From positions 1-61,608 of the forward strand of contig DHHR01000079.1 in NCBI GenBank assembly GCA_002403385.1: DNA of 61,608 bases, written 5' to 3'. Of the stretch, positions 4,935-42,050 are shown in pieces. The translations under genes were made by a program, and so were the position numbers. The DNA comes from Syntrophaceae bacterium UBA4767 (GTDB lineage Bacteria; Desulfobacterota; Syntrophia; Syntrophales; UBA4767). The notes beneath the pieces are model-generated. The model was given only the letters and a program-made list of their open reading frames with translations. It searched no databases and was not told the DNA's origin. The stretch's first letter is position 1, and each line of letters starts with the position of its first letter.

Positions 4935-6137
4935 TTAAATTTCCAGGATATGTCCCATTTTCTTCTTCTTGGTGGTCAGGTACCTGATGTTGTTTTCCGT
5001 CGGTTTGATCTCGATGGGAACCCGTTCGGTAACGGTCATCCCATATCCTTCCAGACCGACGATCTTTTTGGGGTTGTTGGTCATCAGGCGCATTTTCCTG
5101 ACGCCGAGATCTACGAGAATCTGTGCGCCAATGCCGTAATCCCGCAAGTCTTCTTTAAATCCCAACGCAAGATTGGCTTCCACCGTATCCATGCCCTGTT
5201 CCTGTAATTTATACGCCTTGATTTTATTGGTGAGGCCAATGCCACGACCTTCCTGATGCATATAAACAATTACGCCCTTGCCTTCCTTTTCGACCATTTT
5301 CATGGCGGTATGCAGTTGTTCGCCGCAATCGCACCTTTCCGATCCGAAAACATCCCCCGTGATACATTCCGAATGAACCCTCGTCAGAACCTCTTCCTCC
5401 GGATCAATTTCGCCCTTGACTAAGGCCAGATGTTTCATGTCATTCACATCATTTTCGTAAACGATAAGCTTAAATATACCGCCGTAGCGGGTGGGAATAA
5501 TGGCCGTCGCCGCCCTTCGGATAAGCGATTCATGTTGCAGTCGGAAATTAATCAGGTCGGCAATGGTGACGATTTTTAAGTTGTGTTGCCGGGCGAAGAC
5601 TTCCAGATCGGGCATGCGGGCCATAGCGCCATCGTCTTTCATGATTTCACATACCACGCCGGCCGGCTTCAGTTTTGCCAGACGCGCCAGATCGACGGAT
5701 CCTTCCGTTTGGCCCGCCCTGACCAAAACACCGCCTTTCTTTGCCCTGATGGGAAACACATGTCCAGGGCTGACCAGATCTTCCGCCTTTGCATCATCGG
5801 CCACGGCGGCAAGAATGGTTGTCGCCCGGTCTGCCGCTGAAATCCCCGTTGTGACCCCCCGTTTGGCCTCGATGGAAACGGTAAAGGCCGTTCCAAAACT
5901 GGATCGGTTATCCCTCACCATGGGGAGGAGGCGTAATCTGTCTGCATGTTCTTCGGTTAAGGTCAGGCAGATGAGCCCCCTGCCGTATCGCGCCATAAAG
6001 TTGATGGCTTCCGGCGTGGCAAATTCCGCCGCCATACAGAGATCGCCTTCATTTTCTCTGTCTTCATCATCCACAAGGATGATCATCTTCCCGTTTCTTA
6101 TGTCTTCAATTGCTTCTTTTATTGTTCCGATAGCCAT
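4935..6137 (-). CDS. ribBA: Bifunctional DHBP synthase / GTP cyclohydrolase II
   Basis: DDEDRENEGD, TTGISAADR, RVHSECITGDVFGSERCDCG, QEGRGIGL. Confidence 0.99.
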   Translation of the reverse strand: MAIGTIKEAIEDIRNGKMIILVDDEDRENEGDLCMAAEFATPEAINFMARYGRGLICLTLTEEHADRLRLLPMVRDNRSSFGTAFTVSIEAKRGVTTGISAADRATTILAAVADDAKAEDLVSPGHVFPIRAKKGGVLVRAGQTEGSVDLARLAKLKPAGVVCEIMKDDGAMARMPDLEVFARQHNLKIVTIADLINFRLQHESLIRRAATAIIPTRYGGIFKLIVYENDVNDMKHLALVKGEIDPEEEVLTRVHSECITGDVFGSERCDCGEQLHTAMKMVEKEGKGVIVYMHQEGRGIGLTNKIKAYKLQEQGMDTVEANLALGFKEDLRDYGIGAQILVDLGVRKMRLMTNNPKKIVGLEGYGMTVTERVPIEIKPTENNIRYLTTKKKKMGHILEI

Positions 6138-6169
6138 TAAAACCTCTCTGAGGATTTCTAAATTTTTTC

Positions 6170-6820
6170 TTACTTTTCTATAAAACCGTATTGGGCTAGA
6201 AAGTCCATGTCAATTCCCCGACGGGGAGTTTGCTTAAGGCTAAGGAATTTGTCCACATACTTGCCTATGATATCTGTTTCGATATTGACCAGATCTCCTA
6301 TGTTTTTTGTTCCCAATGTGGTGGAGGCAGCCGTATAAGAGATAATATTAACATAAAAAATATTTTTTTTACAGGTATTTACCGTTAGGCTGACGCCGTC
6401 GATGGCAACCGATCCCTTTTCCACCATGTATCTGTCCATGGTATCATCAATCCCGATACCGAAAATAATGGATCTCGATTCAACATTTCTCTCCTGGATT
6501 TTTCCCATTCCATCCACATGGCCCAGAACAATATGTCCTCCCAGAAAATCCGACAAGCGCAGCGCCTTTTCAAGGTTGATCCGGTTGCCTGCCTGAAAGA
6601 TTTTTAAATTGGTTCGAAGAAGCGTTTCTGCGGAAACATCTGCGATAAAACCCTTATTAGTTTTGCCGATAACCGTCAGACACGCTCCATTTACAGCGAT
6701 ACTATCGCCTGTTTTTATATCACTTAGCTCCATGGGAGTTTCTATCTCCAGCAGGAGGTCACTCCCCTTTTTCGTTGTTTGCTTAATTAAGCCTGTGGCT
6801 CCTATGATTCCTGTAAACAT
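6170..6820 (-). CDS. ribE: Riboflavin synthase
   Basis: MFTGII start, GDSIAVNGACLT, GGHIVLGHVD, KGSVAIDGVSLT. Confidence 0.98.
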   Translation of the reverse strand: MFTGIIGATGLIKQTTKKGSDLLLEIETPMELSDIKTGDSIAVNGACLTVIGKTNKGFIADVSAETLLRTNLKIFQAGNRINLEKALRLSDFLGGHIVLGHVDGMGKIQERNVESRSIIFGIGIDDTMDRYMVEKGSVAIDGVSLTVNTCKKNIFYVNIISYTAASTTLGTKNIGDLVNIETDIIGKYVDKFLSLKQTPRRGIDMDFLAQYGFIEK

Positions 6821-6851
6821 TTGGTATTATACAAATTGTGTAAAGGTGTTT

Positions 6852-7322
6852 CTATTTAATATCTTCTTTTTTTGTGTTCAATATCTCCTTGAGTTCTTTT
6901 ACAAAGTCACTCACATCACGAAACTGCCGGTACACGGAGGCAAATCTGACATATGCCACGCCGTCCAAGCGCTGTAATTCTTTCATAACCGCTTCACCGA
7001 TAACGGCGGAAGAAATTTCTTTTCCCTGAAATTCCTCACAGGTTTTTTTTACATCCTCTACCACGCCCTCTATGACATCAATACTGATGGGCCTTTTCTC
7101 GCAGGCCTTTTTGATGCCTGCCGTGATTTTTGTCCTGTCAAAAGGTTCCCTCCGACCATCTTTCTTGACAACCATGGGCAGCACCTCTTCCACGAATTCA
7201 TAAGTGGTGAAACGTCTGCCACAGCCAAGACATTCCCTTCGCCTCCGTATGACATCCCCGTCCTTGCTGATCCGGGAATCGATAACCTTGTTTTCTCTAC
7301 TTGTACAGAAGGGACATTTCAT
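6852..7322 (-). CDS. nrdR: Transcriptional repressor NrdR
   Basis: MKCPFC...[18 protein letters not shown] zinc ribbon, ATP cone, [11 protein letters not shown]; true start at 7322 overlaps the upstream stop. Confidence 0.98.
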
Positions 7323-18204: not shown

Positions 18205-19185
18205 TCAGTCCAGACAACACCCGTTTTTAGCTTGAAAATAAAGATGTAACCCCTCTAATAGCGATTTTTTATCACAGATATTGGTCAAAGTTTTCCTGTA
18301 TTGCGCTCCCCACTTCAAACCTTTAGTATACCATAGCAAATGTTTACGAAAACGCCTGAGACCATGCTTCTCCCCTGCATAGAAGATACTCTTTTCCAAA
18401 TGACATTTAATAATGTCTTCCCTTTCCGAAATTGACGGCACATAATACTCATTTCGCCCTTCCAAAAAAGATATTATATTTTTCAAGTTCCATGGTTCCC
18501 CCAAAACACCCCTGCCAACCATCACCGCATCGCATCCCGTAAGCGCAATCATCCGACATGCATCGTCCGGCCCTTTAATGTCTCCGTTTCCTACCACGGG
18601 AATACGTAAAGCCCTTTTTACGTCCCTTATGATTTCCCAACTTGCATGGCCGGCAAGTCCCTGGTCGGCTGTGCGGGGATGGACAATAACAGCATCTACA
18701 CCGCAATCCTGCGCGACTTGTGCAATCTGCACCGCCGTTATGCTGCGGCTGTTAATGCCCGCTCTAATTTTAACCGTAAGCGGCAGCGAGGTAGCGTTCC
18801 TGACGCTTCGCAAGATTTCAGATACTCTGCTGGGGTTGCCCATCAAGGCCACTCCTGCCCCTGTCTTGACTACCTTCCTGACAGGACATCCCATATTAAT
18901 GTCTATAAGATCAACACCTGCTTCGGCTGCAATTTTTGCCGCTTCGGCAAGGATAGCGGGATCGGCGCCGAATATTTGTGCCCCAAGAGGGCTATCACCT
19001 TGAAAAGATTGAAGATAACCGTAACTCCGATCCGTTTTTCTAACAAGGCCATCGGCGCTTATCATCTCCGTGAAAGCAAGACCGCAACCATATTTTCTTA
19101 CCATTTGCCTAAATGGCGGATCCGTAATGCCCGCCATAGGAGCCAGAAGTACAGAATTTTCTAAAGATAGGCTTCCTATCCTCAT
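18205..19185 (-). CDS. dusB: tRNA-dihydrouridine synthase B
   Basis: LAPMAGITD, DINMGCP, VKIRAG, GNGDI, VMVGRG, RKHLLWY. Confidence 0.95.
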   Translation of the reverse strand: MRIGSLSLENSVLLAPMAGITDPPFRQMVRKYGCGLAFTEMISADGLVRKTDRSYGYLQSFQGDSPLGAQIFGADPAILAEAAKIAAEAGVDLIDINMGCPVRKVVKTGAGVALMGNPSRVSEILRSVRNATSLPLTVKIRAGINSRSITAVQIAQVAQDCGVDAVIVHPRTADQGLAGHASWEIIRDVKRALRIPVVGNGDIKGPDDACRMIALTGCDAVMVGRGVLGEPWNLKNIISFLEGRNEYYVPSISEREDIIKCHLEKSIFYAGEKHGLRRFRKHLLWYTKGLKWGAQYRKTLTNICDKKSLLEGLHLYFQAKNGCCLD

Positions 19186-19934
19186 CCCATTGCCTTCTTT
19201 AAAAACTGCTGCGCTCTTTGAAGGTCTTCAGCAGTGTTGATTCCCATTACCTCCATAGGATCATCAGCAACAAATGACCTGACCTTAAAGTTTTTCTGGT
19301 TTGCTATCTTAACAATATCCGTCAAATAGTATTCATTTTGAGCATTTTCGCTGTCAAGCGCTGCCACGGCATCAAAAAGGAAAGGGCTTTGCATGCAGTA
19401 TATTCCTGTATTGATTTCCTTTATCTGTTTTTGTCTTGCCACCGCATCCTTTTCTTCCACGATTTGCAAAACATCCCCTGTTTCATTTTTAATGACGCGC
19501 CCATAACCAAACGGATTGTTCAAAACTGTTGTCAATACCGTAATGACAGATTTTTGCATCATGTGGCAATCAATCAGAGCATAAACGGTGGAAACTTTCA
19601 ACAATGGGACATCGCCGCATAAGATGAGCACCGTTCCTTTGTGATGCTTCAAGACATCCGCCGCCTGAAGAACTGCATGTCCCGTTCCCAATTGTTCACG
19701 TTGCTCCACAAAAATCAATCCTTTATTTTTAAAGGCTTTTTTTACCTCTTCGGCTTGATGCCCAATGACAACAACAACTTTTTCCGATTGAACCGCTTGT
19801 GCAATATCAACCGGATAGGTCAACATCGGTTTCCCCCTCAGCGGATGCAAAACCTTTGCCAAATCAGATTTCATTCTCTTTCCCTTGCCGGCAGCAAGGA
19901 TAATCGTTGATAATCTTTCCCCTATATTTTCCAT
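19182..19934 (-). CDS. GlmU N-terminal domain only (GlcNAc-1-phosphate uridyltransferase)
   Basis: LAAGKGKRMKSDLAKVLH, EQLGTGHAV, GDVPL, YGRV, IVEEKDA, EINTGIY, NAQNEYYLTD, GIN; ends at about 250 aa with no beta-helix. Confidence 0.9.
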   Translation of the reverse strand: MENIGERLSTIILAAGKGKRMKSDLAKVLHPLRGKPMLTYPVDIAQAVQSEKVVVVIGHQAEEVKKAFKNKGLIFVEQREQLGTGHAVLQAADVLKHHKGTVLILCGDVPLLKVSTVYALIDCHMMQKSVITVLTTVLNNPFGYGRVIKNETGDVLQIVEEKDAVARQKQIKEINTGIYCMQSPFLFDAVAALDSENAQNEYYLTDIVKIANQKNFKVRSFVADDPMEVMGINTAEDLQRAQQFLKKAMG

Positions 19935-19983: not shown

Positions 19984-21309
19984 TCAAACGTCATTTGAAT
20001 CCTGGACCCTATCAAGTTTGGCAGGAAGCACTACCAGGACCTTCTTAATGGATTTCATATCCACGTCTTCTATCACAAAGATAACATCCCCCCAGTGCAA
20101 TGTCTCGTTTCTCTTGGGTATTTTGCCCATCTTGCATAACAAAAAACCGCCTAAGGTATCGTATTGTCCATCTGGAATATCAACGTGAATGGTTTGACGC
20201 ATGCGCTCAATACTGACCCGCGCATTAAATATGTACCTTCCCGATCCGATCTTCTTGTAAAATTCATCTTCTGTATCAAATTCATCATCAACCTCACCTA
20301 CAACGGATTCCAAGATATCTTCTGTTGTTACGATGCCTATGGCGCCACCGTATTCGTCAACGACGATTGCCATCCGTTCCCCTACACTTTGGAACTCAAC
20401 AAGCAGTTCTTTCGCCAACTTCGTTTCAGGAATATAGAGAGGCACGGGTTTTACGCAAGAAGCAATACTCTGATCTTTATCAGGAAGCGCAGGAGACCCC
20501 CATCTTCGGGTTCGGACGGCTTCGATTAGATCAAAATAATGCAATATACCAATAATATTGAATATTTTGTCATCATAAACGGGAATGCGAAGGTACTTTT
20601 TCTCCGTCATGAAACGTGCGGCGCCCTCACAATCCATAGTTACGGGAAGGATTGTCACAGCCGAAATGGGAACCATTATTTCACTGACCGTTAGTTCCGA
20701 AAAATCAAGGACTCTTCTCACCATATCCCTTTCTATGTTGAGAATATCACTGCTTTTATTCTCTTTATCTGTCCCAAGAATAAACTTTAGTCCCCCTTTT
20801 GTGATATAGGATGAATTGATGACCTCTTTTTCACCTTTTGATATTCGGAGGGCTCCTCTGGATATTCTTGAAATCAAGAAGATCACAGGGAAGAACAGCA
20901 GCGATGCGATCCATATGAAAGGGGAAATTCTTATCGCCACCAACTCAGCATGTTGCTGAAATATGCTCTTGGGGATAATTTCACCAAAAACAAGAAGTGT
21001 AGGCACCATTATGAAAACAGATATTAGTTCTCCCCGACCTTCCCCAAAGATCGATACAAATAAACCTGTCGCAACAGCGGTGCTTGTCACAACACATAAA
21101 TTGGTGCCCGTCAGTGTCGTCGCCAGGAACCATTCCGGTTTTTCTGAGAGCTTCACCGCCATACGCGCCAACTTAGAACCTCTTTTAGCCTTTTGACGAA
21201 TTTTATAAATATCCGAAGCAATAAGCGCGATTTCACCGCCCGAGAATAATCCCTCCAAGCACAAGCATAAAATAATCAACAAAAAGGACAGCGCATTATT
21301 CACGATCAC
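19984..21309 (-). CDS. CNNM/CorC-HlyC (DUF21 + CBS + CorC) membrane protein
   Basis: [48 protein letters not shown]. Confidence 0.93.
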
Positions 21310-22564
21310 CGTCCACCCTTTCTATCCGGATCCTCTCTATCCTTGTTCCACGCGCCCCTTCAACATAAAAGTTGTAATTTCCATAGGATACTTTATCATT
21401 TTTCGAAGGCAACTTACCGAACAGGTGGAAAACAAAACCTCCCACCGTGTCAAAATCCTCTGTAGAAATGGAAATATCAATGATCTCGTTCAAATCTCCA
21501 ATGGACATCCGTCCCGAAACAATCCATGTCCGCTCATCTATCTTTTGCCAAAACACTCCTTTGAGCTTCTGCTCCTCATAAATATCTCCGAAGAGATTTC
21601 TAAAAATATCCTCCAGCGTCACCAGACCGGAAACCCCGCCATATTCGTCAACCACAATGGCGATCTGCATCCTCCTGAGTTGAAAATCTTCCAGCAAACT
21701 GCCCACCCGCCTTTCTAGGGGAACGAAGTATGGTTTTTTTAAAAGTTTCTCCAAATGAACCTGTTTATTGCCATTCAAAAGTTTATGAAATAAATCTTTT
21801 GCAAATAAAATCCCTAGGATATCGTCCTTGTTCGTTCCATAAATAGGAATTTTGGAATGTCGAGCCCGGATAATCTCTTTTTCCATAGCCGCTATATCCA
21901 TGGATATGGGAAGACAAAACATCTCCACCCTGGGAGCCATAACTTCAGAAACGGGTTCATCATTCGATGCAAAAACCCTATGAATAATATCCCGCTGCGT
22001 CTCTTCGAGGGCGCCTTCTTTGTATCCCGCATCAATCAAAAGTTTAAATTCATCTTCCGTAAGGTAATTGCCGGCTACGAACTCTTCTCCCGGGTAAAGC
22101 GATGCGAACCAATTCGACATCTTCTCCAATGCCCAAACTACAGGCCACGTTATATAAGCAATAAAGGTCAGCAAGGGAGAGACAAAACTTGAAACGGCAA
22201 TAGGATAAACAACTCCAAAGGTCTTGGGAAGGGCTTCCGCGAAAATAAGCAATATCGGCGTTGTCACCAGCACTGTAATCCACTGGCCGTTTTCTTGGAA
22301 CAATTGGATAAAAAGAGCGGCCATTATGACAGAGATTATAATATTAACGGATTCATTTCCAACAATAATAGTAATGAGGAGCTTTCTGGGGCGTTTCAAC
22401 AGACGGGAAACAAAAGAATAATAAAAAGGAAATTTTTCTTCCATCATTTTGTGAAGATGGAGAGGGCTGAGCGAAAACAACGCTGCCTCTGCGCCGGAAA
22501 ACAGCGCCGAGAAAGCGAGCAGAAACACTAATAAAATAAGCTTTATTGTAATATCGGCGTCCAA
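21296..22564 (-). CDS. CNNM/CorC-HlyC (DUF21 + CBS + CorC) membrane protein, paralog
   Basis: FSGAEAALFSL, IFAEALPKT, SKIPIY, VVDEYGGVSGLVTLED, FDTVGGF; TTG start. Confidence 0.93.
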   Translation of the reverse strand: MDADITIKLILLVFLLAFSALFSGAEAALFSLSPLHLHKMMEEKFPFYYSFVSRLLKRPRKLLITIIVGNESVNIIISVIMAALFIQLFQENGQWITVLVTTPILLIFAEALPKTFGVVYPIAVSSFVSPLLTFIAYITWPVVWALEKMSNWFASLYPGEEFVAGNYLTEDEFKLLIDAGYKEGALEETQRDIIHRVFASNDEPVSEVMAPRVEMFCLPISMDIAAMEKEIIRARHSKIPIYGTNKDDILGILFAKDLFHKLLNGNKQVHLEKLLKKPYFVPLERRVGSLLEDFQLRRMQIAIVVDEYGGVSGLVTLEDIFRNLFGDIYEEQKLKGVFWQKIDERTWIVSGRMSIGDLNEIIDISISTEDFDTVGGFVFHLFGKLPSKNDKVSYGNYNFYVEGARGTRIERIRIERVDGDRE

Positions 22565-37093: not shown

Positions 37094-38716
<1,623 letters not shown>

Positions 38717-38767: not shown

Positions 38768-40117
38768 TCAGGCAAGCTCTTTCCTTGCAATATCGGCAAT
38801 TTGTTTGCAGTATTTTTCCGTCGCCGCATCGGAGGGCCCCTCCACCATGACACGGCATATATCCTGAGTTCCCGAATAACGCACCAAAACACGCCCTTCA
38901 GCGCCAAGGTCTTCCTCTGCTTGCCGAATCGCCTCTACAAGTCGGGGAATCGTGGAAATATCGGGTTTGCGCTTCACATCAACATTGATCAACTTCTGGG
39001 GAAAGATGTCCATCATGCGCGCCATTTCGGAAAGCGGCTTGCCTTCTTTTAACATAGCGGCAATCAGCTGCATCGCCGCGATGATGCCGTCGCCTGTCGT
39101 ATGATGGTCGAGGAAAATCATGTGTCCCGCATCCTCTCCGCCAATTACCGATCCCAGCCGCAGCATGTCTTCGAGAACATAGCGGTCTCCCACCTGGGAG
39201 GCATGATAGTTAAAACCATACTTCTTGCAGGCAATTCTTAGGCCCAGGTTGCTCATCACGGTGCTAACGAGGAGATTATTTTTCATTTTACCCTCATTTT
39301 TCAACATATTGGCACAGATGATAAGAATCTGATCGCCTGTAATATCATTGCCCTTTTCATCCACAGCGATGAGACGGTCACCGTCTCCGTCAAAGGCAAG
39401 ACCTATGGCTGCCCTGCTTTCCACCACTTTTTTTTTCAGATCCTCCGTGTGCTGTGAGCCGCATTTATTGTTGATATTAATGCCATCCGGCGCGTTATGA
39501 ATAACCTCAACATCGGCGCCAAGCTCAATGAACGCATCGGGCGCCACCCTGTATGTGGCGCCATTTGCGGTATCCAGCACGATCTTCATTTCCTCCATAG
39601 AAAGATTGCGGGGAAAGGTGTTTTTCAAAAATACTATATATCGCCCGTGAACGTCATCTATCCGAAAAGCCTTCCCCATTCCTGCCGCCGTCGGCAGAAG
39701 ATCGGCAAGCTTATCACTGAGGATCAACTCCTCTATCTCCTCTTCCTGTTTATCGCTCAACTTGAAACCGTTCCCCCCGAATATCTTAAGCCCGTTATCC
39801 TGATAGGGATTGTGGGAAGCGGAAATGACAATGCCCGCATCGGCGCGCATACTCTGAGTGATAAAGGCGATTCCCGGGGTGGTCAGCACGCCGACCAGGT
39901 AGGGATAGCCTCCCATGGCAGTGATTCCCGCTTCCAGGGAACTTTCCAGCATGTATCCGGAAATTCTGGTATCTTTACCGATAACAATACGGGCATGGTG
40001 ACGGTTCTTTTTGAACAGATGCGCTACAGCCTGTCCGACGCCAAAAGCAATTTGTGTGTTGACGGGATAGCGGTTTGCCTCCCCCCTTATTCCATCGGTT
40101 CCGAATAATTTACCCAT
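38768..40117 (-). CDS. glmM: Phosphoglucosamine mutase
   Basis: FGTDGIRG, GKDTRISG, ISASHNP, DGDGDR, VGDRYV, RYSGT. Confidence 0.97.
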   Translation of the reverse strand: MGKLFGTDGIRGEANRYPVNTQIAFGVGQAVAHLFKKNRHHARIVIGKDTRISGYMLESSLEAGITAMGGYPYLVGVLTTPGIAFITQSMRADAGIVISASHNPYQDNGLKIFGGNGFKLSDKQEEEIEELILSDKLADLLPTAAGMGKAFRIDDVHGRYIVFLKNTFPRNLSMEEMKIVLDTANGATYRVAPDAFIELGADVEVIHNAPDGININNKCGSQHTEDLKKKVVESRAAIGLAFDGDGDRLIAVDEKGNDITGDQILIICANMLKNEGKMKNNLLVSTVMSNLGLRIACKKYGFNYHASQVGDRYVLEDMLRLGSVIGGEDAGHMIFLDHHTTGDGIIAAMQLIAAMLKEGKPLSEMARMMDIFPQKLINVDVKRKPDISTIPRLVEAIRQAEEDLGAEGRVLVRYSGTQDICRVMVEGPSDAATEKYCKQIADIARKELA

Positions 40118-40178
40118 CGTTTTTCTTCATCTCCAAATGATTCATCTCTTGCAAACTTATCTCCCAATGTATCCTTAA

Positions 40179-41441
40179 TCAACCCTTTTTCTTGAATAAA
40201 CTTAAGGATGGGACGGACATGGCCACCGTGTTGCATAGAGTATCCACCATGCCGCCAAGCCAAACAACGCCTTTTGATGAAACTTTCGCGGGAAGGCTTT
40301 GTATCGTCTCAAGGTAATTGGCCCTGTAATGCCCTACAATTTTTTCGAAGTCCCTGAGAAACGCTTCACGAGACCTCTCTACGGTCTCCGGCTCATCCGA
40401 CGGTTGTCCGTTGAAAATATCCTCAAGGAACGCCATCTTCTCATAAAATTCACGCATTCCCTGCGCTGCCTTTCCCTTTCGTTTCTTTATGGATGGGGAT
40501 AAGGCTTTTTCCGCCACTACCTTCAGCCTTTTCAGACGCTCTTTTCTGGCCAGTAAAAGCTGTTCCATCACGCCCTCATAAAGAAAGAGGCCAAACTGCT
40601 GAGCTTCCAAGAAAGGCTTTCTTACATGGCTGTACCAGGCCTCAAGGGCTGTCATGTTTGCCAGATAGACAATATTATTCTCCACGATACGCCCTATGTT
40701 AGGATAAGCTGTGGGAATATAATCTCTAACGATTTTGGAGTTTATCGTGTCAAATATCAATTTATTATCTTCGATGTAATCGTGTCTCAATATAGAACCT
40801 GCCGCCACGACATTGCCATATCCCAGACGCGCCGGACCTACGATTCCTCCCTGGCCACCCAAAAAAATGGGGGGCTGGTTCAGCATAACCCCCCTTGGCA
40901 CATCACCTATCAAGGATGGCGTTGTTTTGTCTGCATCAGGGGTAAAATTGAAATGGATATAGGAACTGCCCACCTCAGAGTGATTCTGGCGGCTTGTGCC
41001 GCCAGCCATAAAGCAGTCACAGAAATTGATCAGGCTGCCGAGTGTCACAAAGGGAAAGAGGATGGTCTGTTTTAGACCGACACAGTGGGCGCCGCTTGCC
41101 TGTTCTTCCATAATGGATCCTTCACGCACGCAAGCGCCCATCCCCATCTTCGCTTGCTCAAGAAATACGGATTTGCTAAAGAAGCCCCCCTTCAGTTCAA
41201 CTGTTGGTCCCAGTTGGCAGTTTTCCATCGTTACGGGGGCTTCATATCCGAGTTGACACCCTGACGATATTACCGTCTTGTTGCCATAGATTCTGCATCC
41301 CGGATAGATCTTGACGCCTTGTTCTGAAATGAGGTCTATATTAACCTCATCGCCAATATCAACGCTGCTGGGATTAGGGATATCCACGCCTTTGCTGAGC
41401 AGCCGGCGTATTTTTTCATGCGATCTCGGTTTGAAATCCAT
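40179..41441 (-). CDS. Stand-alone GlmU C-terminal-like left-handed beta-helix protein (putative GlcN-1-P acetyltransferase) with extra C-terminal domain
   Basis: N-terminus LLSKGVDIPNP aligns by eye with the GlmU linker; hexapeptide repeats; ...VGLKQTIL...FNF...LIGD...AAGS pattern; directly upstream of glmM. Confidence 0.65.
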   Translation of the reverse strand: MDFKPRSHEKIRRLLSKGVDIPNPSSVDIGDEVNIDLISEQGVKIYPGCRIYGNKTVISSGCQLGYEAPVTMENCQLGPTVELKGGFFSKSVFLEQAKMGMGACVREGSIMEEQASGAHCVGLKQTILFPFVTLGSLINFCDCFMAGGTSRQNHSEVGSSYIHFNFTPDADKTTPSLIGDVPRGVMLNQPPIFLGGQGGIVGPARLGYGNVVAAGSILRHDYIEDNKLIFDTINSKIVRDYIPTAYPNIGRIVENNIVYLANMTALEAWYSHVRKPFLEAQQFGLFLYEGVMEQLLLARKERLKRLKVVAEKALSPSIKKRKGKAAQGMREFYEKMAFLEDIFNGQPSDEPETVERSREAFLRDFEKIVGHYRANYLETIQSLPAKVSSKGVVWLGGMVDTLCNTVAMSVPSLSLFKKKG

Positions 41442-42050
41442 GTGGTTATCTTGAAAATTTATTTAATAATTGCATTGAAAGAATAGTATTTTCTACCAGA
41501 TATCCGGTCATGTGTCAATATGCTCCGTAAAGCGCCCGCTTACCAACTTTTCTTGCCGGCCAGTCTTATTTTTTATATATCCCTTCTTCTCCGGAGTTTG
41601 ATTTTCATCCCTATGTGTTTATTGTCTCTTATTGCCTTCACAGCATCCCTCTCTAATAAAATTATACAACTTTAAGCTGTTAAATTCTACCAATCAGGGG
41701 TTGTATTTTCTGTTCCTGCAGGGTGAAAGTGTCACCTTTTTTGCAATGAGGAAATGTCACCCTCCCGGTGTGATGTTTTGTGTTGTAAACATGTTTTAAT
41801 GTCCCGCAACGTTTAAAGCTTCTATAACCCCGTAACGTATTGTCTCCCCCATCGTAAATGTAACCCTCTCTTTCATGAAGCGCCCACTTCGCCTCGTGAG
41901 ATGCTTCTTCCTTTGCCTGGTTCAGACAGGGGGTGACATAATCATATTGCAGTAACACATTTACCACTTTTCCCTTTACAAAAAGGTCCATATTATGTAT
42001 GAAATCAAGTTTAAATTTCCCTTATACCTAAACAAGGTGGTAGGTTACCT

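Follow-up and report, generated by a model that had tools for sequence, protein, structure and literature searches.

An open reading frame (ORF) at 40179..41441 on the minus strand of a 61,608-nucleotide stretch from Syntrophaceae bacterium UBA4767 (contig DHHR01000079.1; hereafter the window) encodes P0001, a stand-alone GlmU-C-like protein of 420 residues. P0001 lies outside the bifunctional GlmU proteins and lacks their catalytic histidine, yet very likely works like their acetyltransferase half. We consider it probable that P0001 is an acetyl-CoA (coenzyme A):glucosamine-1-phosphate (GlcN-1-P) N-acetyltransferase with a rebuilt active site. The evidence consists of homology, the fold predicted for P0001, the genes around it, natural fusions to residues 1-330 of GlmU and a phyletic pattern in which its family and the other acetyltransferase types are nearly exclusive. 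In most bacteria both activities leading to UDP-N-acetylglucosamine (UDP-GlcNAc) are fused in one GlmU, which is treated as near-universal and whose acetyltransferase site is an antibiotic target. The initial annotation of the window had suggested a monofunctional GlcN-1-P acetyltransferase class. The computational tests that it named, together with the fusion to a uridyltransferase half, argue for such a class as far as sequences and models can tell.

P0001 resembles the acetyltransferase domain of GlmU

Against the GlmU model TIGR01173, P0001 matched positions 239-446 (E 1.8e-11). Its 43.6 bits lie below the cut-off of 366.85 and the N-terminal half of the model is a separate gene 20 kb away, which places P0001 outside bifunctional GlmU. 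Searched alone, P0001 hit no Pfam family over its cut-off, and the archaeal-type GlmU model TIGR03992 gave no match at E 0.1. The profile of the P0001 family retrieved exclusively GlmU from the PDB (18 of 18 matches), and hhalign paired P0001 with E. coli GlmU at 97.8% (E 8.3e-13). The AlphaFold2 model (mean predicted local distance difference test score, pLDDT, 95.1) consists of a helix, a beta-helix up to about residue 230 and further helices at residues 249-409. With this model as query, the best 31 Foldseek matches listed were all GlmU. The top VIA-align structures were GlmU too, with Z 22.3 (root-mean-square deviation 6.5, 218 residues aligned) and Z 22.2 (4.7, 210 aligned), followed by QdtC (Z 18.5) and LpxD (17.9), with LpxA also among the next. 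The predicted fold is thus closest to GlmU, as anticipated: a left-handed beta-helix (LbH) homologous to GlmU residues ~240-450, the acetyltransferase domain.

Residues 8-241 (40719..41420, minus strand) comprise the second half of the GlmU linker helix, the LbH and its tail, and form the predicted trimer interface. The initial annotation had the protein begin where the linker begins, with KIRRLLSKGVDIPNP; this stretch is residues 10-24, not the very start, and it is the second half of the helix that is present, from residue ~8. The two loop insertions relative to GlmU that had been seen by eye measure about 6 and 10 residues in hhalign. The C-terminal addition of ~170 residues was likewise found as described, without GlmU counterpart. 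It is all helical and, modelled alone, has a pLDDT of 91.8; its core, residues 249-409 (40215..40697, minus strand), is family-specific and carries conserved W269, Y270, R274, E301 and R302. A fold search with this domain alone gave no Foldseek match at E 0.001 and no clear solved match, the best Z of 7.8 being at the level of common bundles. FadR_C was considered for this domain and not accepted (E 0.005, in 5 of 91 members only).

Three copies of residues 1-315 were predicted to form a trimer with a score of 0.93, compared to 0.00 for the best of three controls; the mark applied was passed by 20 out of 30 homo-oligomers of solved structure and by 1 out of 23 single chains. Contacts agreed between runs to at least 92%, with pLDDT of at least 90. 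P0001 is accordingly predicted to form a homotrimer with sites between subunits. Cross-subunit contacts in the model (122-136, 139-136/159) fit the active-site register given below, and the invariant family residues gather at the predicted inter-subunit site. CoA was included in the complex model but left unscored.

An active site without the catalytic histidine

The catalytic GHLTYLGD of GlmU reads GSLINFCD in P0001, and the replacement of histidine by serine proposed at the outset was recovered in the same register by hhalign and, with R106=R333 and K124=K351 as anchors, by profile scoring without gaps. In this register (P0001 first, E. coli GlmU second) H119=N346, G122=E349, S136=H363, N139=Y366, D142=D369, E156=N377, N165=N386, G196=S405 and A214=A423, while the equivalence K172=K392 comes from hhalign. 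Residues 125-148 taken alone were ambiguous in ungapped profile scoring, and HMMER gapped alignments instead pair F140 with His363; no histidine stands there under either register.

Conservation was counted in 112 non-redundant members out of 272 aligned. Eight positions are invariant (112/112): R106, E113, K124, S136, N139, E156, N165 and K172, and these include the equivalents of Arg333, Lys351, Asn386 and Lys392. We take Arg333, Lys351 and Lys392 of GlmU to bind the phosphate and Asn386 to position the amine; Glu349 is presumably paired with the catalytic His363, and Ser405 presumably contacts acetyl-CoA. The His363/Glu349 pair is absent: Ser136 (41034..41036, minus strand) is found in every member, and position 122 is Gly in 91 and Asp in 18 of them. 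One rung before Ser136, His119 (41085..41087, minus strand) is a candidate substitute base. Histidines elsewhere had been put forward as parts of a rebuilt site; H119 (90/112) and H154 (92/112) are indeed conserved, but none is invariant and the idea is weaker than first stated. The pattern of retained and lost residues suggests that the sugar-phosphate clamp is kept and that amine activation is different, probably His-independent.

The family rarely co-occurs with other acetyltransferase types across the phylum

Among 251 genomes of the phylum, the canonical GlmU half occurs in 144 (including 8 with the C-half alone or split over contigs), an archaeal-type stand-alone half in 65 and the P0001 family in 43. 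Exactly one type is present in 240 genomes (the canonical in 138, the archaeal in 63, this family in 39) and two types in six (four canonical plus family, two canonical plus archaeal-type, none family plus archaeal-type). No type was found in five, as against ~66 expected under independence, and these five are draft assemblies of 100-830 contigs. A canonical C-half was missing from 68 non-carriers as well. A stand-alone TIGR03992 C-half was present in 5/5 genomes probed (G125, G042, G045, G094 and G043; loci L175, L176, L178, L179 and L181). The profile built from these five matched no carrier of the family, and 63 of its 65 genomes are without any canonical C-half.

In the 43 carriers GlmU is most often partial, being cut at model positions 323-357 in 13 and reduced to the N-half in 16. 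E. coli GlmU cut at 331 has uridyltransferase activity only, according to the accessible part of the report (PMC4358021). Contrasts in acetyltransferase type are found inside families f25, f31, f39, f54, f64 and f73 and inside genus g36, where G037 and G111 have a full GlmU and no family gene, and G077 and G170 combine the family gene with a glmU that breaks off at model position 345/357 and lies just upstream of glmS. Ten further carriers reached through their loci, of unstated completeness, comprise two with full GlmU, four with truncated GlmU and four with none recognisable. The phyletic profile thus turned out as expected: the family goes together with truncated GlmU and is nearly absent where GlmU is fused.

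In six genomes of family f32 (G038, G078, G112, G142, G171 and G201) the canonical C-half stands alone and a search at E 1e-20 gave no N-half, so that they must rely on a different uridyltransferase, perhaps a NagU-like one.

A uridyltransferase-only GlmU in the same window

The gene at 19182..19934 (minus strand) encodes a uridyltransferase-only GlmU of 250 residues. It matches TIGR01173 positions 2-238/239 with 286 bits, so that this product and P0001 tile the GlmU model (2-239, 239-446). Its stop codon and the start of a Dus gene overlap, and a frameshifted or remnant C-half behind it was sought and found in no frame. Of 19 E. coli positions checked, the protein retains 18, among them N169 and also E154, Y197 and T199, which we take to bind the N-acetyl group. 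A search for a full-length glmU, as had been advised, gave no match over the GlmU cut-off in the whole source genome (1.83 Mb, 97.4% complete), and the archaeal-type acetyltransferase profile (A3, 1e-35) found nothing there. Since murA and lpxA are present, this genome needs UDP-GlcNAc. Directly upstream of the uridyltransferase gene lie two ORFs of similar length (19984-22564, minus strand); the one tested is CNNM/CorC-like.

The family is fused to the N-terminal part of GlmU in one lineage

Among 120 matches listed, 40 are proteins of 740-760 residues in which GlmU ~2-330 is followed by a whole family protein. P0178 (750 residues), for example, carries the nucleotidyltransferase domain and the start of the canonical beta-helix, then the complete family protein with its own linker helix. 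Family motifs are kept in 44/44 long forms checked, and one fusion is named Candidatus Rokuibacteriota. Two of 80 metagenome loci fetched with P0284 contain the fusion, both behind a pseudouridine-synthase gene; the same gene stands in front of an ordinary glmU in 20 loci among the first 32 inspected. Nine of these ordinary genes, the nearest to the fusion, are 61-71% identical to its first 330 residues, and the His motif is kept in 6/6 of those checked. This is most simply read as replacement of the native acetyltransferase half by the family at the existing site within glmU. The fusion is probably one event and therefore counts once.

Several other candidates were discarded. The 2,248-codon open frame of G016 is an antisense frame of neighbouring genes, and P0148, P0251 and P0231, which look like frameshifted or chimeric records, were not counted.

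Gene neighbourhood and partners

As the initial annotation had it, a 420-residue ORF with a GlmU-type beta-helix lies directly upstream of glmM: the phosphoglucosamine mutase gene (38768..40117, minus strand) starts 61 nt 3' of it on the same strand. Its product passes TIGR01455 (566.9 bits for a cut-off of 447.55) and has the SASHNP motif. The same-strand row continues with pyrG (CTP synthase, 37094..38704, minus strand), dapF and an aminotransferase gene, and its spacing, the sole ground here, suggests co-transcription with the ORF. A promoter scan was at chance level, with 10 hits compared to 7.9 in shuffles (sd 3.3). A perfect TTGACA is found at 41513-41518 (minus strand), ~75 nt upstream of the ORF; 17 nt on stands TAGAAA, preceded by TG, whose last base fails the rule of the scan. 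An identical ORF (0 differences) was retrieved on one contig from a different study (run X6, piece 39821-41600). A plasmid comparison gave no match.

In the 80 closest loci, glmM is directly 3' of the family gene in 78, a NagB-like cluster occurs in 64 and GlmS-like genes in 40; these neighbour-cluster counts include some shadow ORFs and one 305-residue protein without assigned family. Among 20 distant genomes glmM is next in 11 and one gene away in two, and a long glmS is next in five, so that one or the other lies within two genes in 18/20; of the other two, one stops at the edge of its contig and the second is surrounded by unrelated genes. Unrelated genes follow the family gene in L025 and L026. 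The order glmS-family-glmM is seen in many loci.

GlmS is present in 42 of 45 other carriers tested, in standard form in 10 and in a long form in 32. This double-length GlmS (~1,200-1,300 residues; e.g. L035:1977-5807) is the sole GlmS match in those 32. Both f4 genomes and G027 are also without glmS. In relatives, a row of moaC, a membrane gene and Fis precedes the long glmS or the family gene; in the source genome unrelated genes follow it (Fis-HTH, G000:C61:44810-45112). A conserved protein of ~305 residues without Pfam or NCBIfam match often comes after the NagB-like gene (L055:4144-5058 and similar). A YvcK/CofD-family gene, which we assume to be GlmR-like, lies near the cassette in 12/80 loci (including L023, L060, L066, L069, L091 and L100).

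The GlmM encoded beside the family forms a subtype of its own, marked by GE[DE][SA]GH in the sugar loop (GEDAGH in the window) and SGTQ in the phosphate loop (loci L027-L127 and the window). These GlmMs keep SASHNP in 97/97 and T[VI]M[SA]N and VGDR in 94/97. Columns separating carriers were found at looser thresholds and none at strict ones. In a quick tree without bootstrap, the GlmM of carriers falls mostly outside the clade of non-carrier GlmMs. Pairings cross in both directions: G012 has the family gene with a canonical-clade GlmM, and G186, which lacks the family gene, has a full GlmU together with a family-clade GlmM. These pairings and the kept GlmM motifs favour GlcN-1-P as the shared intermediate. 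The GlmM subtype may reflect either common descent of the two genes as a mobile pair or a change of substrate.

Extent and annotation of the family

The homologue search gave at least 7,999 sequence clusters, all scored candidates passing E 0.001, and a search of representatives gave 665 matches, 235 of them under 1e-30. The alignment used for the family profile (n=100) contained the query, 72 of 82 representatives of 355-445 residues and 27 close matches. In the 251 genomes the family is sharply bounded: its 43 members, a single copy in each carrier, match at E <1e-138, and the next match, at 1.6e-24, is an ordinary GlmU. The homologues closest to P0001 are named from Smithellaceae, Syntrophaceae and Syntrophales; members are also named from Actinomycetota, Chloroflexota, Nitrospirota, SAR324, Rokubacteria and one Candidatus Acidoferrum. 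Databases mostly call these proteins UDP-GlcNAc pyrophosphorylase or bifunctional GlmU. They contain no nucleotidyltransferase domain and the name fits the job of the other GlmU half, so that at least 7,999 sequence clusters probably carry a wrong annotation.

Some architectures depart from the common one. In L043, two family copies (658-1908 and 5959-7254) flank a long glmS, and their C-terminal halves are strongly divergent, with 30% and 51% identity to the query. L097:4069-7236 is a 1,056-residue frame whose first 640 residues have no family match. P0160 and P0392 carry an extra LbH/beta-helix stretch in front, without uridyltransferase match.

Proposed reaction and alternative explanations

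In the scheme that we favour, the adjacent GlmM would make GlcN-1-P, P0001 as a trimer would transfer the acetyl group of acetyl-CoA to it, and the uridyltransferase-only GlmU (19182..19934) would likely finish UDP-GlcNAc. Arg106, Lys124 and Lys172 would hold the 1-phosphate and Asn165 would position the amine. With the His363-Glu349 pair gone (Ser136-Gly122), deprotonation would depend on something other than the GlmU histidine; most likely the amine attacks after positioning and deprotonation aided by the invariant Glu156 or, in most members, by His119. The helical domain most likely braces the trimer or caps the active site, which is the least certain step.

Several observations weigh against this scheme. 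The GlmU residues His363, Glu349, Tyr366, Asn377 and Ser405 are replaced by Ser, Gly, Asn, Glu and Gly. No histidine is invariant, the best conserved being H163 (104/112), and in one clade, which includes members named SAR324, the residues are Gln119, Asp122 and Phe154, often together with His120. In M. tuberculosis GlmU, His374, the PHLTY histidine aligned to His363, is needed: His374Ala abolishes acetyltransferase activity, as stated in the part of the report available to us (PMC4619583). An LbH N-acetyltransferase may do without such a residue, since ApmA His135Ala keeps resistance within two-fold in the accessible text of PMC7885111. A full GlmU is kept by 4/43 carriers and by 2/10 of the further ones; the N-half match is weak (E 1e-28 to 1e-32) in 8/43 and absent in 2/43. 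The genomes are related, so the phyletic counts are not independent trials, and the trimer score may stem from likeness to already solved GlmU trimers, which lowers its weight. The source genome also encodes five GNAT matches and three other sugar-acetyltransferase-like LbH proteins. In the sugar loop of GlmM, D/E is present in 94/97 proteins from carriers compared to 1/28 from non-carriers. Finally, the claim that P0001 completes a two-gene pathway has to be qualified: neither glmS nor nagB was found in the 97.4%-complete genome, where TIGR01135 matches were PurF and KdsD. The source of glucosamine-6-phosphate (GlcN-6-P) in this genome is consequently unexplained; an assembly gap and salvage are both possible.

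Some of these observations would suit another substrate order. P0001 could acetylate GlcN-6-P, in an order like that of eukaryotes, which would leave the linked GlmM to turn GlcNAc-6-P into GlcNAc-1-P. Replacement of His363, Tyr366 and Glu349 by smaller residues would reshape the pocket, the linked GlmM has its own signature and lies outside the non-carrier clade, and the order glmS-family-glmM recurs; the two family-clade GlmMs with Gln at the sugar-loop site (G186 and G216) are both from full-GlmU genomes, both of family f73 and thus not independent. Against this stand the invariance of the presumed phosphate-binding residues, GlmMs that keep SASHNP, TVMSN and VGDR and pass the GlmM cut-off, the cross-pairings in G012 and G186, and a fusion partner, the uridyltransferase, that acts in the step after GlcNAc-1-P. 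We give this order a low probability. That P0001 is a dead GlmU-C homologue scaffolding or regulating GlmM, long GlmS or N-only GlmU, with a GNAT or other LbH protein doing the acetylation, would agree with the lost His-Glu pair, the extra helical domain with its conserved charged residues, the four carriers with full GlmU and the five GNAT matches. A scaffold would hardly produce overlaps of 0/43 with the archaeal type and 4/43 with the canonical one, occupy, in the fusion lineage, the place that the canonical half otherwise has in glmU, or have its invariant residues clustered at the predicted inter-subunit site, and we regard it as improbable.

Less probable again is a reversed order, in which the N-only GlmU makes UDP-glucosamine and P0001 acetylates it, the extra domain binding uridine as in LpxA/LpxD/QdtC-type enzymes. 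The structural matches after GlmU are indeed QdtC, LpxD and LpxA, the pocket is likely larger, and the part of PMC10087520 available to us has E. coli GlmU running in this order at much reduced rates. Yet the N-only GlmU keeps the presumed N-acetyl-binding residues E154, Y197 and T199, and the family is interchangeable with canonical halves without visible change of partner. At the bottom of our ranking comes acylation of an amino sugar for another product (lipopolysaccharide or glycan), or with another acyl donor, glmM being adjacent for precursor supply. The uniform Gly at the Ser405 position, presumably an acetyl-CoA contact, and the unscored CoA leave some room for it; the single copy in each of 43 carriers, the exclusion pattern and the fusion speak against it, and no glycan gene was recognised among the identified frequent neighbour clusters, some clusters being without identity. 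Acetylation of GlcN-1-P by P0001 accounts best for the whole.

Comparison with known systems

No description of the family was found in a literature search that left most subscription papers uncovered; the supplements of a June 2026 bioRxiv preprint (10.64898/2026.06.23.733835) may list such proteins. The accessible part of that preprint states that N-half-only genomes imply an unidentified acetyltransferase. For about one sixth of the sampled genomes of the phylum (43/251), the family is a concrete, testable candidate for it. If active, it would show LbH chemistry proceeding without the histidine on which M. tuberculosis GlmU depends. The fusion offers a clear example of an essential gene in which one domain has been exchanged in situ. 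Neither the pathway nor its product is new.

Truncated GlmU forms in the same preprint and the monofunctional uridyltransferase of C. canimorsus (PMC4358021) share the split or partial GlmU. As far as the accessible parts of both go, they differ in dealing with GlmU halves recognisable by BLAST or with GlcNAc auxotrophy, and do not describe the family.

The DUF4954/DUF6819 proteins (PF16314, PF20683) also join an LbH to a further domain. By language-model features they are the nearest named clusters to whole P0001 (0.86-0.87) and, in Bacteroidota and Spirochaetota, to its helical half, residues 243-420 (0.81-0.84). These scores are under the lead threshold of 0.9, and PF16314 is touched by 2/100 family members with a weak best E of 0.058, so that the resemblance, and any homology, is a lead only. 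The DUF4954 profile matched 0/251 genomes of the phylum and 0/81 in a second sample drawn through G276, apparently the same phylum again and with no bearing on Bacteroidota. A wider scenario can be drawn, which we think unlikely: the family would be a widespread third class of GlcN-1-P acetyltransferase that carries out an essential step of cell-wall synthesis without catalytic histidine, is module-swapped with the canonical and archaeal types and was spliced into glmU in one lineage so that a bifunctional enzyme was regained. It would share its combination of beta-helix and helical domain with DUF4954/DUF6819, and the latter would supply the acetyltransferase missing from Bacteroidota and spirochaetes that are currently believed to rely on external GlcNAc.

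ApmA, QdtC and LpxA/LpxD belong to the same LbH acyltransferase fold class, and ApmA tolerates loss of its histidine; their structural scores are below those of GlmU, and their substrates and contexts are others. The archaeal-type half (TIGR03992 ~245-393; ST0452-like, PDB 5z09) is likewise a free-standing LbH found in truncated-GlmU genomes, with a His at the H119 rung. Unlike the family, it keeps the AGHFAY histidine; its profile match to the family covers 36 columns only, and the two co-occur in 0/43 carriers. Closest is the GlmU C-domain itself (TIGR01173; PDB 2oi6, 4aa7, 1hm0), which shares the linker helix, the LbH, the tail, the predicted trimer, the equivalents of R333, K351, D369, N386, K392 and A423, and the pathway position implied by neighbourhood and fusion. 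The family differs from it in its ~20% identity, in being usually free-standing, in two loop insertions and in the added helical domain of ~170 residues.

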